64,000 nt of DNA from a virus. Lineage: Duplodnaviria; Caudoviricetes. The translations under genes were made by a program, and so were the position numbers. The notes below the pieces were generated by a model, which was not told where the DNA came from, did no database searches, and saw nothing but the letters and a program-made list of their open reading frames with translations. Below, in pieces: positions 3,127 through 56,379 of the stretch (position 1 is its first letter; each line of letters opens with the position of its first letter). The stretch covers positions 192,001 to 256,000 of the IMG/VR virus record IMGVR_UViG_3300011989_000257. One strand, given 5' to 3'.

Positions 3127-5161
3127 TTACCAATTGATTATTAGCATTGTCCCTGGTGAGCAATTATACCTCACATATTCTACTTTAAAGCCGTAACTAG
3201 ATAAACGTTCATTTATGACATCTTTCAATGTAGTGAGTAATCCATCTGACTTAATTCCTCCAAAATAAGTATCAACTAATTCATCTAGTGACATATATAT
3301 ATCAAGCTTCCCTTTTTTGGCAGATTTCTCAATGTTTTCAAACACTGCGTCCATAAAACGATTTAAGCAATCATCATAGGTTGTTTCGATTTTATTGAAC
3401 GCCATTTCTCTTGCTTCTTCTGCTGTTATATGATTCATATTATTCTCCTTTTTGCGTTTTCAATTGTTTAATTCTAATGTCTTGGAATTGATACAACTGT
3501 TCATAGATTCGTTCATTGCGATTCATGCAAGTATCAAGTTTCTCTCGCCATAGTTTTGAAAGTTCAATCCATTCTTTTTCACTCTGCTTATAGTTTCTTA
3601 TCTGATAATCCTGAACACCTATTGTGGTAATCAGAAAAAGAAACAGCAACCACTTTCCAACGGTTACAAACGGTTTAAAATCTATATTCGAATCCATATT
3701 ACAATTCTCCTTTCTGTGCTTTATTATTAACTGCCATCCCAAGTTCAAAGAAATGCTTGGCAATTACTATTACAGGGCTTTCTGTACATTCATAAAATTC
3801 TTTTGTTTGAACAAATCTTTCTACCTCTTTCTGCAAATCCACCTCTTTTACCTCAAGGGTATCGAGGAAAGAAAGCAACTCCGTAAGAACAAAAGCTTCG
3901 TTTCCATAAACTGCTCTTAATGCTTTATCGGTTTCATTCTTTGGTATTTCTTTTCTTCTTCTCACTATCTCCGCTACTACAGCAGATTTTGGTATGTACT
4001 GTTCCATAATCTACTTATTTTTTAATATAATAAAATTAATAAAAATCTTACCAATGAATATATTATAAATTTTTCCAATTGGCTTATTATATTTCATAAC
4101 CTTAAAGAATGGTTTCCAAACATAGTCAAGTATCGTAATATTTAGTATAAATCTTTTACACTCCATTGATTTATCTTTTAATGCTACTAATTTCCACTGA
4201 GTTATTTGTTTTTTCAAACTTCATATTACCGTTACAAGCTGCGAACAATAGTTGTCCAACGATGAACAAGTAGGCCATATTCCTGATAAAGTAGCACATT
4301 TCTTCAGTTCTGACGTACTTATAAGGGTCTTCTAGAACCTTTTTAACATACAAGTCGGTTGTACCTTGGTGTAATACTACCATCAAGTGACTGAATATAT
4401 GCCACAAGATTCCAAGCAATATGATGATTAAAACTATGTATATAATTGTCATTTCCATACCTTACTCTCCTTCTATATAGTTTTTGAAATTTTCAATCAT
4501 TTCTTTCTTGCTATCAAATACTTCACTTTCAATGCTATAACGTCTATTATTGAAAAAGAAGTATTCATCTAAGAATTTCAATGCCTTCTCGATAAAGACA
4601 TCCTTGCGGACGTATTCCTTACTTTCATCGTCAATAGCCTTTGTTTGCCATCTCCTATCAAAATTAGGTGTGGCATAAATTTTTTCTGGTAGATTCTTCA
4701 TAACATTATTTCTTTTTCAATTCCACAAAGTCTTAATGCGTAGTGGAGTTGATGGACATATTTAATATGTGTAAGATATAATTTCGTTCTCTCACTTGGT
4801 ATAACATTGTCTTTTCCTTTTTCGACAATTTTGATGTACTCTATTCTGTTTGCATAGCCTAATTGTACTGATATAGAGTAGTTATCTAAATCTTTATCAT
4901 AATGATGCCAAATGAGGTCTCTTTTAAAGCCATTCTTCTCCAATATCTCTGGAGTAAGTTCTACATTGTCACCAACCATCGATTCGTTTGCTTTCATAAC
5001 TTCATTGCTTTGTGACCCACAATCCACTTTATCAAAAACAGTAATCCAAATGACACATACAAAGGTATTGCATCATCACCAAGCAGATTATATAACATAT
5101 AGCAACCATAATAGACAGCATAAATCCATACTATAATATAAAAAACTAACAATGCTTTCAT
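3127..5161 (-). CDS. Run of small hypothetical genes (3127-3438, 3440-~3700, 3699-4007, 4011-~4170, 4171-4458, 4462-4701, 4698-4997, 4994-5161)
   Basis: Head-to-tail packing; 4994..5161 is a 55-aa hydrophobic ORF found manually. Confidence 0.7.
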
Positions 5162-52496: not shown

Positions 52497-52528
52497 CAAA
52501 TATATGAAAAAAAAATGAGACTACCAAA
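52497..52528 (-). promoter_or_regulatory. Bacteroidetes promoter with hairpin (would terminate the iscB-array transcript)
   Basis: TTTG-N20-TATATTTG; atgagactac...gtaatcccat. Confidence 0.8.
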
Positions 52529-52554: not shown

Positions 52555-52693
52555 TAACTAATCTAGTACAATGCACTTTTTTCCACGATGTATAAAATAT
52601 ATTGTTATAATTATTACTATTAATAAACTAATCTAGTACAATTTGATTATCTTCAAAGCAATTATTATTATTAACAAACTAATTCAGTACAAT
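52555..52693 (-). CRISPR. CRISPR-like mini-array downstream of iscB (3 repeats, core ATTGTACTAGATTAGTTT)
   Basis: Repeats at 52555-52572, 52625-52642 and 52676-52693 (two extend to 34 nt, 30/34 identical); unique spacers; repeat complementary to the 5' end of the omegaRNA scaffold. Confidence 0.7.
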
Positions 52694-52741
52694 TCGTGTT
52701 AGATGCGCATGCCACACAACAATTGCAGTTGTATGACATTT

Positions 52742-54016
52742 TTATTCGTAAGTGAACTGGAGTAAATGACTTCCGTGCATTCTTCTTAAGAATTTAACAT
52801 CAGCACTTCTTACAGTAAAAGGTGTCATCTTACCTTTACCGTTTGGTTTTCTCGTAACAAAATTACCATTAATATCCTTCAGATACAACCTACCATTTGA
52901 ACTTCCACCAACAAAACACTCTATTCCATTCCACAAAACCAAATCACCTTTCTGTAACCTACTTTTACCTATCATATGACTAGTAGTCATGGCCTGACGC
53001 ATACCTCCTTTTTTTGGAACTTGTTTATGTAGAGACCTAGTGTGTCTTCTGTTAAGTTTGTATTGATAATATCCACCAAGTCTCTCGGCAGATGTGTTAT
53101 CAGCTATAACGAATGCATCACTAGTATGTGACTTCTCAATTCCATTTCTTAAACGATTAGCCTTAGTCATATAGCCGTATGTGGTTTTGACATCGCCATA
53201 TGTTTCTTTTGTTTTTTTGAAAAGTATATTACCAATTATTGATACTGAAGTCTGGTTTTTGAGACTAGGGAGTTTTTTAGCATTAAGTTCAAATTCCCCT
53301 TTGTGCAGCCTTTTGTGACATTCTTCACACAATGTGATAAGATTTTCTACAGTATCAGTACCCCCTTGTGAACGATATTTGATATGATGTACATTTAACG
53401 TTTCACATCCACTTTTACCATGACAATGCTGGCACTCATGTCTGTCCCTAGTCAGAACATATTCTCTAGCATTCTCAAAACCAAATAATTCTCCTTGTTG
53501 ATATTCCTCACCTTGAATTTCTGGATTCTTTATTTTTTGAGTGTCAAATGGTGCAACCTCAAGAATAATACTAGAAATAGGAAGAATGTTATAAACACGT
53601 TGGATTGCTTTCTCGTGTTCATTTAACCTATTTCTTGAGGTTGGTGTCAACCACCCATCTTGTCTTTTTCTGTTATCGAAACGTGGCTTTCTATATCTAG
53701 TCTTTCTGCTACGTCTAGTTCTTCTAGATTCGAGTCTAGAAAGCATAAGTTCTGGAATCTCTTTGCTACGAAGTTCTACTTGTGCGGCATAAAGCTCCTT
53801 AGAAGATGTCGAAGCAGATAAACCTATATATTTAGAACCAGTATCAACCCCAAGTTTTATTTCTTGTAGATTTTCCTCAGAAGTGTAATCGAGCTGGATT
53901 GTGAAAGGGATGGTAGAAACAACATGTGCTTTACCTTCCTTTAAAAGCCTCCTAACTTTTCCATGACGAGTTGTTGGCATTATAGGTTTGCCATCTTTGT
54001 TTAACACATAAACCAT
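52742..54016 (-). CDS. iscB: IscB RNA-guided endonuclease (PLMP-like, split RuvC, bridge helix, HNH)
   Basis: GKPIMPT, GVDTG (RuvC-I), RRTRRSRKTRYRKPRFDNR, ILEV (RuvC-II), HHI..RSQGG..NLITLC..CH (HNH), SHTSDA (RuvC-III). Confidence 0.95.
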   Translation of the reverse strand: MVYVLNKDGKPIMPTTRHGKVRRLLKEGKAHVVSTIPFTIQLDYTSEENLQEIKLGVDTGSKYIGLSASTSSKELYAAQVELRSKEIPELMLSRLESRRTRRSRKTRYRKPRFDNRKRQDGWLTPTSRNRLNEHEKAIQRVYNILPISSIILEVAPFDTQKIKNPEIQGEEYQQGELFGFENAREYVLTRDRHECQHCHGKSGCETLNVHHIKYRSQGGTDTVENLITLCEECHKRLHKGEFELNAKKLPSLKNQTSVSIIGNILFKKTKETYGDVKTTYGYMTKANRLRNGIEKSHTSDAFVIADNTSAERLGGYYQYKLNRRHTRSLHKQVPKKGGMRQAMTTSHMIGKSRLQKGDLVLWNGIECFVGGSSNGRLYLKDINGNFVTRKPNGKGKMTPFTVRSADVKFLRRMHGSHLLQFTYE

Positions 54017-54034: not shown

Positions 54035-54218
54035 ATGCTGTAAGCCACCAACTTAATGGTGTTGTGTACCCATCGCTAATGTTGGTTGGAGGTTTTTACT
54101 AGAAAGACATTCTCGCTAGCCGCAGGGTTTGGAGCTTGGGTAACAACTCCAAAGTGCCTATATATTCTCCCTCAACGTAGTCCTCGAAGGACTTAAGCTA
54201 ATCGTACTAAATTAGTCT
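54035..54218 (-). ncRNA. omegaRNA scaffold beginning with an anti-repeat (tracrRNA-like)
   Basis: Directly upstream of iscB; omegaRNA-type blocks GATTAGCTTAAGT..GACTACGTT..ATAGGCAC..CCAAGCTC..AACCTCC..AACATTAGCGATGGG; 3' boundary approximate. Confidence 0.8.
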
Positions 54219-54222
54219 AGTG

Positions 54223-54254
54223 CAAAGATACCAAAAAAACATGAGATAAACAAA
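54223..54254 (-). promoter_or_regulatory. Bacteroidetes promoter for the omegaRNA/iscB transcript
   Basis: TTTG-N20-TATCTTTG; hairpin catgagata...tatttcatg. Confidence 0.85.
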
Positions 54255-54270
54255 TATTTCATGCTAAAAA

Positions 54271-54334
54271 AGATTAATATAGTGCAATTAACATTAGATT
54301 TAAGGTATAGTATATAAACTAATATTAGTACAAT
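54271..54334 (-). repeat. Two further, more degenerate copies of the IscB-associated repeat upstream of the promoter
   Basis: ATTGTACTAATATTAGTTT (54316-54334) and ATTGCACTATATTAATCT (54271-54288). Confidence 0.65.
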
Positions 54335-54353
54335 ACCATTATTAACGCTACAT

Positions 54354-55118
54354 TCATGTATTAACGCTACACTCATAGATTGTGACCAATTGATTAGGGT
54401 CTAAGTTTTTTATGAATCTGTCATAAAACGTTGCAATCCAATGTTGTTCCCCTTCCTTATCACTATCTATATCTGTCCAACCGTTCTCATCAACAAAGGC
54501 ATAGTTCCAATAAGATGTACTATATGCAACATAATTCTTTTTATTCTTGAATTTAGAGAAATATACTGTTTTATCTTTCATTGATTCGTATATTTTCTCT
54601 TCTTCATCATTGGTTGGTTCTCTGCCATCCATTACCATTTCCCAAGCAGCCTCGTATAGTCTCGGTGGCTCATTCATGGAATCCCAATCAATGTCACTTG
54701 CCTTTGCTGAATATGACTCACTACCATCTTTTAACTTTAATGGTAAAGAAAAATTTCTTCCCACCCTAGCAGTTTTCCAATGACCTTCAGTGTTTTCAGT
54801 TGATAATGCATTACCATTCTCATCATAATACATGCCATCTGTTAATTCTCTATAGTAGTCAAAAGGTGTTAACTTCTTAAGAATATTTATCCTCTCTGAT
54901 AAACTATTCTTAATAGAGCCATCTATACCGATAGTATCGGCATTAGATAGTATGTTATTCAATGCCTTTATTGCATTATCCAAGTATTTATCAGCTTTAA
55001 GGTATTCATATTTGACATAAGGTTCAATTTCTAAATCCATTGAATACTTTGCCATTATTTCTTTATGGTTTTCTCCAATTACCATGACGGAGAAAAACTT
55101 ACTCGCAGTATTAGCCAT
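54354..55118 (-). CDS. Hypothetical protein
   Basis: 254-aa ORF. Confidence 0.75.
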   Translation of the reverse strand: MANTASKFFSVMVIGENHKEIMAKYSMDLEIEPYVKYEYLKADKYLDNAIKALNNILSNADTIGIDGSIKNSLSERINILKKLTPFDYYRELTDGMYYDENGNALSTENTEGHWKTARVGRNFSLPLKLKDGSESYSAKASDIDWDSMNEPPRLYEAAWEMVMDGREPTNDEEEKIYESMKDKTVYFSKFKNKKNYVAYSTSYWNYAFVDENGWTDIDSDKEGEQHWIATFYDRFIKNLDPNQLVTIYECSVNT

Positions 55119-56379
55119 TATTTGTAACGTTAATTGTATAAGTTAGGTCTTCGATGTTAGCATTAAAGCCTTGCCGTATTTGTTCCATTTGCGCTTCGTT
55201 TAATTGAAAATATCCATGATTAGGAACTTCTGCAATTCCAATATGCGGCTCATCTGCAATTCCTCCATCATCTGCCATTGGTCTATCCATATCAATGTAG
55301 TCACGTTGTTTCCTTGGTGCAGTTTCTTCGCATATTATATTGTCAAATGTGTGACCGTTATTTTCCAATGTCTTGGAGGTATCAATTCCAAAGAATGCCT
55401 CCAATTGAGAGTTTACTTGCATCATTCCATAAGATTGTAATGAGGAGAATACCATGTCATTTATTTTATCAGTGTGCGACATTTTAAACCTTCCATAAAA
55501 CCAAATGTAAGGTTTTGATTCCTCATCTATTAGTCTTTCATATATCTTATCCATTACTTTTCTCTCATTTGAAAAGTTGGATGCAGTTTTTTCATTGTTG
55601 GAAAACCATTTACTTTTTTTAAAAGCATTTGTTCCAGGATATGCAAAACTTGGACATGTGCTAGTTATTACGCAATTAATTTTATATTTACTGAGTATAT
55701 CATTCAGTTCATCTTCTTTATATTGTGGTGCTTCATTCTCCCAATACAACTTTTTGCCATATAACTCTTCTTGAGCAAGTTTCCACTCTTTATCCATTGA
55801 TACACTTCCACCAATACATAGACAATTAAATGTTTTAAGAGAAACTACTGAATAATCTGGTATAGTTTTGATGTGTTCATAGTCAATTTTCTTGTCATTG
55901 AATATTGAAGGATTATCATTATTGCCTCTTAAAAAGAGTATGAAACAATTATTGTCCGAAAGACTTTTTTCTAACTTGGTGAATGTTTCTTCGTAGTATT
56001 TTTTACTTTTAGTACCAATACCACAATTACCACTAACTATTACCACACTGTTATCAAAACTTGAATCTAATTTTTTAGATTTACCGTGCGGAGAAGATTT
56101 AGAGAAAAACGTTTCAAATATTTCATCATTAGGGTTTCTTCTCCTTGCTTGACGTGGACCGTGAATAGGATGTGGCATACCAAATCCACCCAAACCACCT
56201 TCAATAGGTTTTTCGCTACGTTTTTTCAATCTTTCTTGTCTTTCTATCTCTTTTGGGTGCTCTTCTTTTGTGAATTTAGAAATGTTAGATGTTATGCTAT
56301 TAATGAATCTATCCATATTTCTATCTATGTTACCAAACACATAACATTTTTCGATTTTTTTAAAATTATAAACATTCAT
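55111..56379 (-). CDS. Metallophosphoesterase-fold protein with degenerate metal ligands
   Basis: GNIDR, SGNCG, RGNND, TSTCP and YGRF replace GDxHG, GD, GNH(D/E), xH and GHxH; IGGSVS.DK block retained. Confidence 0.7.
   Translation of the reverse strand: MNVYNFKKIEKCYVFGNIDRNMDRFINSITSNISKFTKEEHPKEIERQERLKKRSEKPIEGGLGGFGMPHPIHGPRQARRRNPNDEIFETFFSKSSPHGKSKKLDSSFDNSVVIVSGNCGIGTKSKKYYEETFTKLEKSLSDNNCFILFLRGNNDNPSIFNDKKIDYEHIKTIPDYSVVSLKTFNCLCIGGSVSMDKEWKLAQEELYGKKLYWENEAPQYKEDELNDILSKYKINCVITSTCPSFAYPGTNAFKKSKWFSNNEKTASNFSNERKVMDKIYERLIDEESKPYIWFYGRFKMSHTDKINDMVFSSLQSYGMMQVNSQLEAFFGIDTSKTLENNGHTFDNIICEETAPRKQRDYIDMDRPMADDGGIADEPHIGIAEVPNHGYFQLNEAQMEQIRQGFNANIEDLTYTINVTNNG

Follow-up and report, generated by a model that had tools for sequence, protein, structure and literature searches.

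Which role could three short sequences play that lie between an iscB gene and its terminator in the genome of a large phage, each of them directly 5' of one copy of a repeat? The window, that is the whole stretch of 64,000 nucleotides that was analysed, comprises bases 192001-256000 of a 412.5-kb virus record that is rated complete, and has a GC content of 33%. In a preliminary description of this DNA the three sequences had been proposed to be guides of the IscB nuclease. The best explanation, to which we assign a probability of about 0.6, is that the three repeats would be crRNA-type repeats of a split IscB guide RNA, with the flagged sequences at the guide position. That the sequences take guide positions is well supported by the covariation of repeat and anti-repeat and by the turnover of the array, and no match supports the claim that they work as guides on identifiable targets. 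The elements of the locus are as follows.

54223..54263, minus strand: weak hairpin with T-run (54263-54233) followed by the -7 box TATCTTTG (54230-54223), a generic terminator-promoter module of the phage
54061..54229, minus strand: omegaRNA scaffold (Rfam HEARO, RF02033; cmscan 61.3 bits, E 7e-11), without the 5' strand of the first hairpin
54201..54217, minus strand: anti-repeat GACTAATTTAGTACGAT, located at the 5' extremity of the omegaRNA and differing at 3 positions from the reverse complement of the repeat
52742..54016, minus strand: iscB, 424 aa (Pfam RRXRR 3e-63, 213 bits; HNH 3e-11, 43.7 bits)
52744-52742, minus strand: iscB stop codon TAA
52713-52694, minus strand: candidate guide 1 GGCATGCGCATCTAACACGA, those 20 nt of the 48-nt gap 52694-52741 that adjoin repeat 1
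52693-52677, minus strand: repeat 1 ATTGTACTGAATTAGTT, a variant with GA in place of AG (2 changes) that still pairs at 17/17 positions, followed by an AT-rich 17-nt tail
52659-52643, minus strand: candidate guide 2 GCTTTGAAGATAATCAA, 17 nt with 29% GC, between the tail of repeat 1 and repeat 2
52642-52626, minus strand: repeat 2 ATTGTACTAGATTAGTT, followed by an AT-rich tail
52592-52573, minus strand: candidate guide 3 TACATCGTGGAAAAAAGTGC, 5' of repeat 3, at the end of a 36-nt gap
52572-52556, minus strand: repeat 3, the last one, followed by AAAT and the terminator
52541-52515, minus strand: hairpin of an intrinsic terminator, found by terminator scan, which closes the omegaRNA-iscB-array unit

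The protein has the architecture that defines IscB: its N-terminus is a PLMP/RRXRR region and its RuvC domain is interrupted by an HNH insertion, and IscB structures are its top matches in the PDB, both by sequence and by fold. Its PLMP motif is intact in the PIMP version. The RuvC residues D58, E153, H297, and D300 and the HNH residues H210-H211 align with the OgeuIscB chains, whose catalytic residues are D61, E193, H247, H340, and D343 (PMC9640706). The nuclease residues are thus intact, and these and the PIMP motif are unchanged in 25/25 homologues. Concerning the C-terminal TAM-interacting domain, the phmmer alignment to OgeuIscB covers only residues 1-329, the AF2 model is poor overall (pLDDT 54) with residues 350-424 forming a confident beta domain, and Foldseek aligns the protein over its full length to IscB at a low TM-score. 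The closest homologues form a tight clade of 77-95% identity, the next relatives being only about 55% identical. Its members sit on large phage contigs or metagenome contigs, several of which come from cattle rumen.

The omegaRNA scaffold is found where it is expected for an IscB, upstream of the reading frame, and the HEARO hit and the RRXRR gene are each unique in the 412.5-kb genome. With 61.3 bits the hit stays below the gathering score (83), since most of model positions 1-55 is unaligned; the first hairpin is largely missing. In the Rfam alignment the anti-repeat occupies the place of the 3' strand of this hairpin, just ahead of the nexus region with its conserved GAUUAGC. The omegaRNA lacks the 5' strand, and as predicted it would not be a single RNA with its guide in cis. 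In OgeuIscB the guide is joined to the scaffold by a 14-bp guide-adaptor hairpin (PMC9640706), which Kato et al. equate with the repeat:anti-repeat duplex of Cas9 (PMC9640706). From GATTAGC on, the scaffold is ~97-100% identical within the phage clade, though the proteins differ by ~20%. The anti-repeat, in contrast, is hypervariable while the rest of the scaffold stays near-constant.

The sequence ahead of the anti-repeat is common in this genome. The combination of T-run and TAnnTTTG (TATCTTTGCA) is present 92 times, compared to 14 times for a backwards control, and 52 of the 92 boxes read TATCTTTG. The module lies mostly on the minus strand, and its strand bias tracks the genes. TAnnTTTG is the -7 element of Bacteroidota promoters, and with the usual offset of this promoter type the +1 of the omegaRNA would be at about 54218. 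In all relatives the same module is located 0-4 nt ahead of the anti-repeat, and every locus of the clade has the same order of hairpin, T-run, and TATCTTTGCA box, anti-repeat, scaffold, iscB, repeats, and terminator. At the other end the preliminary description had the array as part of a single unit ending at a hairpin, and a scan did find the terminator there (52541-52515); the next promoter box ends at 52497, past this terminator. Scaffold, iscB mRNA, and array are, as predicted from the arrangement of these signals, probably one RNA of about 1.7 kb. The module frames the IscB cassette on both sides (54223-54239 and 52497-52515). The further claim that the array has no promoter of its own is uncertain. 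It agrees with the window, where there are only weak boxes, but not with a conserved TTAGATTT[C/G]TG box, a host-type -7 motif, which follows some of the repeats in relatives and is common to L006 and L011. By its appearance, this box resembles an internal promoter of the repeat unit, comparable to type II-C CRISPR arrays, where crRNAs are started from promoters within the repeats.

Between the iscB stop and the terminator, the three 17-nt repeats (core ATTGTACTAGATTAGTT; 34 nt if the AT-rich tail is counted) each have a unique 5' sequence. The three minus-strand copies and their distinct 5' sequences were recovered as they had been quoted before, with unique parts of 48, 17, and 36 nt before repeats 1, 2, and 3, and a repeat finder reports them as a 35-nt family of 77-100% identity spaced by 70 and 51. 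With up to 3 mismatches allowed, the 17-mer occurs 4 times in the window while 0.56 occurrences are expected, and a count of 4 was reached in 0/100 shuffles. Elsewhere in the 412.5-kb genome there is one 2-mismatch site, inside a gene. The repeat-proximal parts had been described as GC-balanced, which agrees with the GC contents of guide 1 (55%) and guide 3 (40%); the 17-mer of guide 2, with 29%, is at about the genome average and does not conform. A weak promoter-like box may overlap guide 2, and this and its AT-rich composition count against a split guide. Over 36 units from six loci the last ~30 nt before the repeat have ~38% GC compared to ~30% further off, with no sharp edge, and the guide length of 17-20 nt used here is adopted from OgeuIscB.

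The spacing of the units is not that of a classical CRISPR array, in which repeats of ~23-55 bp alternate with spacers of similar size. From start to start the repeats are 51 and 70 nt apart in the window, the relatives have distances of 36-171, and the gaps are between 13 and 134 nt long across the loci. Such gaps are unlike any characterised array, which has to be counted against a split guide. A range of this width also means that no ruler of the Cas1-Cas2 type is at work. In accordance with this, and with the earlier proposal of acquisition without Cas1-Cas2 that had been based on the irregular spacing, the genome contains zero matches to Cas1 (PF01867) and Cas2 (PF09827), while the positive controls did match. 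Csn2 was not found in it either.

Further evidence comes from comparing repeats and anti-repeats. In the window all 17 positions can pair, 3 of them as G:U, so that each of the 3 differences between the anti-repeat and a perfect complement of the repeat is G:U-compatible. The predicted duplexes between repeats and omegaRNA have 17-19 bp and -19.7 to -21.4 kcal/mol and always begin at nt 3-5 of the omegaRNA, whereas shuffled repeats have means of -8 to -10 kcal/mol and a best value of -15.6. Five types of pairs are present in the clade.

W (the window locus) and L019: repeat ATTGTACTAGATTAGTT, anti-repeat GACTAATTTAGTACGAT
L006: repeat ATTGTATCAGATTAGTT, anti-repeat AACTAATCTGGTATGAT
L005: repeat ATTGTATCAYTATTAGTT with one bulged base, anti-repeat AACTAATATGATACGAT
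L011: repeat ATTGTGTTGWTTAGTTT, anti-repeat AAACTAAACAACATGAT
L013: repeat ATTGTGTGATTAGTTT, anti-repeat AAACTAATCACATGAT

Watson-Crick or G:U pairs are found in 85/85 cells (17 positions in each of the five types), although both sides change at 10 of the 17 positions. Five sites are G:U and zero cells are A:C, an asymmetry as expected if the iscB-sense strand pairs as RNA, and not as expected for inverted repeats at the DNA level. The length of the duplex varies jointly on both sides (16, 17, or 17 plus a bulge), and cognate combinations score 15-17 compared to 7-14 for distant non-cognate ones. One observation that counts against a split guide is an A:A mismatch in the duplex of about half of the L011 repeats. 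Upstream of the omegaRNA a copy of the repeat is lacking in L005, L006, L011, and L013, hence in four of five types, whose anti-repeats have only a partner in trans available. The orientation claimed before, with the guide 5' of the repeat on the iscB-sense strand, holds and so does the logic of repeat and anti-repeat, given the covariation in five types. A covarying repeat:anti-repeat duplex as in the dual guides of type II systems can be read from the sequences; the two separate RNA molecules are putative.

These data suggest the following course of events. A phage promoter would abut the start of the omegaRNA, so that the RNA begins with the 17-nt anti-repeat and, having no guide of its own, resembles a tracrRNA. 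The repeats in the 3' UTR could pair with this anti-repeat and thereby rebuild the guide-adaptor hairpin in trans. The ~16-20 nt that precede each repeat would then come to lie at the site from which IscB takes its guide for the cleavage of DNA. Scaffold, iscB mRNA, and array would probably be transcribed together and be separated afterwards by cleavage at the duplexes, with host RNase III as one possible enzyme, and some relatives possibly start their crRNAs at promoters within the repeat tails. The array would turn over fast by gain, loss, and replacement of units without Cas1-Cas2. Its targets are probably rival phages, plasmids, or the host.

How fast the arrays change can be seen from closely related loci. 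The IscB of L019 is 95% identical to that of the window, and omegaRNA, repeats, and terminator are common to both loci, yet 0/3 downstream spacers are. The last repeat and the terminator are identical, and the stretch holding guide 1 has been wholly replaced. The earlier proposal that these sequences are guides has gained from this complete replacement of spacers next to an almost unchanged nuclease, as it has from the covariation. The arrays of the clade contain 3-10 repeats. L047 and L006 are 99% identical across iscB and array, yet L047 has one unit more, and some adjacent units of L013 and L019 have similar spacers, which suggests that the arrays grow by duplication and divergence. L047 is a 3.4-kb contig with a peculiar composition. 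Its positions 300-620 contain an anti-repeat and three upstream repeats of the W type, its iscB and its 5-unit downstream array are those 99% identical to L006, and the crossover is inside the omegaRNA. The W-type anti-repeat forms 16/17 pairs with the L006-type repeats, a further point against a split guide. Either L047 is a natural recombinant in which a mismatch is tolerated, or it is an assembly chimera.

It could also be that the pairing is regulatory, with the 5' end of the omegaRNA and the repeats in the 3' UTR serving to circularise, stabilise, or process the iscB mRNA, for example in an autoregulation by RNase III, and with mere filler between the repeats. We regard this as unlikely. 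Anti-repeat and repeats are on one predicted transcript, the lengths of the gaps are very irregular, zero targets were found, and the first repeats are often directly behind the stop codon. In L005 (4289), L011 (3793), and L019 (1661) the first repeat is located 13-16 nt past the iscB stop. The guide of such a repeat would be the 3' end of iscB itself, which is to be counted against a split guide, and these first repeats may mark a site of mRNA processing rather than a guide. However, one repeat would suffice for regulation, yet the arrays hold up to ten, and unique spacers are swapped wholesale between near-identical loci with the repeats kept. The duplex also lies exactly at the position of the guide-adaptor hairpin, where the adjoining 5' sequence reads as guide, and a guide-less omegaRNA would leave an intact nuclease unprogrammed.

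The search for targets has a different outcome. For the three candidate guides and three spacers of relatives neither a target nor a TAM was found in the phage's own genome, IMG/VR, INPHARED, the JGI metagenomes, and the GTDB genomes. A match above chance or a shared flanking motif, on which the preliminary description had made its proposal depend, was found for none of the three sequences, and this is the computational half of the result that it had named as speaking against guides. When the repeat-proximal 16 and 20 nt of 14 spacers were compared to the phage's own genome with 2-3 mismatches allowed, only the array itself matched. The same was obtained with all 36 spacers by blastn-short, which in the related loci gave nothing beyond chance. 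BLAST of four arrays against INPHARED returned only E-values of 0.05-10, and the three spacers of relatives had no foreign match in IMG/VR. A comparison of the guides with the full-length records of four phages that are related or carry IscB yielded a single site, in a related phage, which matches guide 2 with 2 mismatches, a mismatch lying in the seed. It has to be considered that natural spacers are mostly without matches, too.

The individual matches of the three guides are few. The 20-mer of guide 1 has zero exact matches in IMG/VR and the JGI metagenomes and one in GTDB (596 Gb), located within a gene of a GC-rich Pseudomonadota MAG and without extension. By our own estimate about 1.1 matches are expected there by chance (2 x 5.96e11 / 4^20), so that the single match is the number expected. 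The 17-mer of guide 2 matches IMG/VR 21 times, about 14 of these being independent, and the absence of a common flank among the 21 is consistent with chance. The 20-mer of guide 3 has no match in IMG/VR, but an exact 20-nt match in two overlapping metagenome contigs of 55% GC, which were counted as one event. Including ATT, the first 3 nt of the repeat, this match extends to 23 nt (L024:2636-2658, L025:13653-13675). It starts 72 nt into a gene of a tail-sheath family that adjoins a tube gene of the gp19 type. The pair is flanked by housekeeping genes and is therefore chromosomal, and the tail-sheath family is commonest in Bacteroidota. As one or two chance matches of a 20-mer are expected per scan of that size, there is only a small chance that the match is real, and it is held as a lead only.

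The missing targets would also be explained if the split guide once worked and has decayed since, the repeats still pairing while the three sequences are now unused or without a living target. There are only 3 units in the window compared to 7-10 in L005, L011, and L013, guide 2 is AT-rich and just 17 nt long, and the copies of the repeat upstream of the omegaRNA are bulged or degenerate. Against decay, however, 3/3 repeats pair at 17/17 positions and the nuclease residues are intact. That every spacer differs between W and L019 indicates recent turnover rather than decay. We therefore consider decay rather improbable.

The complementarity could instead be a matter of DNA, if the repeats were inverted repeats flanking iscB, such as terminal inverted repeats or ends similar to the LE and RE of IS200/IS605 elements, or recombination sites, and the pairing only reflected the symmetry of the ends. 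The usual location of IscB is within IS200/IS605 elements, in which the left end and the omegaRNA 5' end coincide, the cassette has differing gene contexts in different phages, and L047 looks recombinant. However, the Y1 transposase (PF01797, TnpA) is absent from the complete 412.5-kb genome, and the IS200/IS605 context is thus missing. DNA ends would also not account for 3-10 right-hand copies with unique spacers or for a left arm inside an RNA scaffold at the position of a hairpin. Between the arms, G:U is the only kind of difference and A:C does not occur, and symmetry of the DNA does not predict such an asymmetry of the strands. This explanation is therefore quite improbable. Finally, that ordinary AT-rich intergenic repeats of the phage, like its promoter and terminator elements, resemble the 5' end of the omegaRNA by chance can be dismissed as very improbable even in an AT-rich genome (33% GC) full of repeated promoter-terminator modules, because the genome has the motif at this locus only, its count was not reached in any of 100 shuffles, and it covaries with the anti-repeat across five lineages.

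A split guide RNA with crRNA-type repeats, the preferred reading, would place the locus next to several known systems. CRISPR-associated IscB has been described by Altae-Tran et al. 2021 (Science 374:57), according to the account given in PMC12660989, and has been proposed as an intermediate between OMEGA and Cas9 (PMC12660989). A nuclease of IscB size together with repeats, spacers, and an anti-repeat in the ncRNA but without Cas1/Cas2 characterises these systems (PMC12660989) and is found here as well. The ncRNA of DelIscB, which was characterised by Zhang et al. 2025, contains repeat and anti-repeat, and the authors leave open whether it gets processed into two RNAs (PMC12660989). In DelIscB, however, the ncRNA includes the array, which is located upstream, and pairing of the last repeat is in cis (PMC12660989). 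The clade of the window has no contiguous upstream array with regular repeats and spacers of the CRISPR type. Judged by the layout, the main array is in the iscB 3' UTR, and a promoter parts the anti-repeat from anything upstream. In addition, the repeats have 17 nt (34 with tail), the gaps 13-134 nt, and the carrier is a 412-kb phage. CRISPR-associated IscB as such is already known, and the differences here are the scaffold's own promoter at the anti-repeat, the array in the 3' UTR, the 17-nt repeats, the irregular spacing, and the megaphage as carrier. Our literature search found no paper linking IscB with huge phages.

With canonical IscB-omegaRNA systems (OMEGA, OgeuIscB) the locus shares the protein family, the catalytic residues, the scaffold from the nexus stem on, and the location of the omegaRNA in the iscB 5' leader. 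In contrast to them, guide and 5' strand of the guide-adaptor hairpin are outside the omegaRNA, and neither TnpA nor an IS200/IS605 context is present. Type II CRISPR-Cas9 has the same dual-RNA logic, with the spacer 5' of the repeat and the repeat pairing with the 5' part of the scaffold RNA, and the intra-repeat promoters of type II-C resemble the TTAGATTT[C/G]TG boxes after some repeats of the relatives. Unlike Cas9, the nuclease has 424 aa and no REC lobe, there are no Cas1, Cas2, and Csn2, the repeats are short and irregularly spaced, and array and tracr-like RNA are on the transcript of the nuclease mRNA. The CRISPR systems of huge phages (Cas-phi; Al-Shayeb et al. 2020, PMC7162821) and the mini-arrays of viruses are similar in combining a compact nuclease and a short array without adaptation genes, and the presumed use against rival elements or the host is common to the huge-phage systems and the window. 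Here, however, IscB takes the place of Cas12, the arrays lack the regularity of CRISPR arrays, and targets were not found.

We consider it an even bet that in a clade of megaphages from rumen and gut the omegaRNA has been divided independently into two parts, a tracrRNA-like scaffold without guide and crRNA-like units in the iscB 3' UTR, and that the latter form irregular proto-CRISPR arrays, which expand and are remodelled through duplication and replacement in the absence of Cas1-Cas2. Cas9 is accepted to descend from IscB, and the way from a one-piece omegaRNA to a crRNA plus a tracrRNA fed by an array is still debated on the basis of very few natural intermediates. In this clade five repeat/anti-repeat pairs have evolved together around a scaffold that hardly varies. 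Because the arrays are on the nuclease mRNA and have neither a fixed spacer size nor adaptation genes, it becomes testable how guides are made and how units arise without Cas1-Cas2. If true, this would be a natural and still-evolving model for the origin of the Cas9 dual RNA and of the CRISPR array from an OMEGA element, and at the same time a multiplexable nuclease of 424 aa, a small enzyme possibly accepting separate short guide RNAs. A target, once found, would show for what a giant phage uses an RNA-guided nuclease.

Some minor observations concern the surroundings of the cassette and of the repeats. The neighbours of the cassette vary between phages (window 54354-56379 compared to the upstream genes of L011, L013, and L048). 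In the window it comes after genes of 254 aa and 422 aa, both without Pfam match, and in other phages it is flanked by a T4 gp13-like gene and a Plug-domain gene. Either the cassette moves or the genomes rearrange around it. Behind some repeats there is a TTTWATAKTATTAGATTT[C/G]TG tail though the repeats themselves differ (L006:4344-4367; L011:4158-4178 and 3999-4019). Upstream of the omegaRNA, where the W lineage has 1-3 copies only, the window contains two.

54334-54317, minus strand: upstream copy of the repeat, ATTGTACTAATATTAGTT, with a 1-nt bulge, right after the stop of the preceding gene
54288-54272, minus strand: degenerate upstream copy of the repeat

The terminator-promoter module separates this upstream mini-array (54272-54377, minus strand) from the anti-repeat. 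A cis hairpin between the upstream repeat at 54334-54317 and the anti-repeat over a loop of 99 nt was considered and rejected, because 4/5 types lack an upstream copy and the supposed loop is the generic terminator-promoter module. The nearest canonical relatives, L020 and L021 (~55% identity, 1225-1290 in both), are in phage-like contexts and retain a short cis hairpin without an array, and their scaffold start GGATTAGCC is directly duplicated ~30 nt upstream. A 19-nt tandem duplication in the window (54340-54377) overlaps the stop codon of the preceding gene and the would-be guide of the upstream copy, and L019 is single-copy there.
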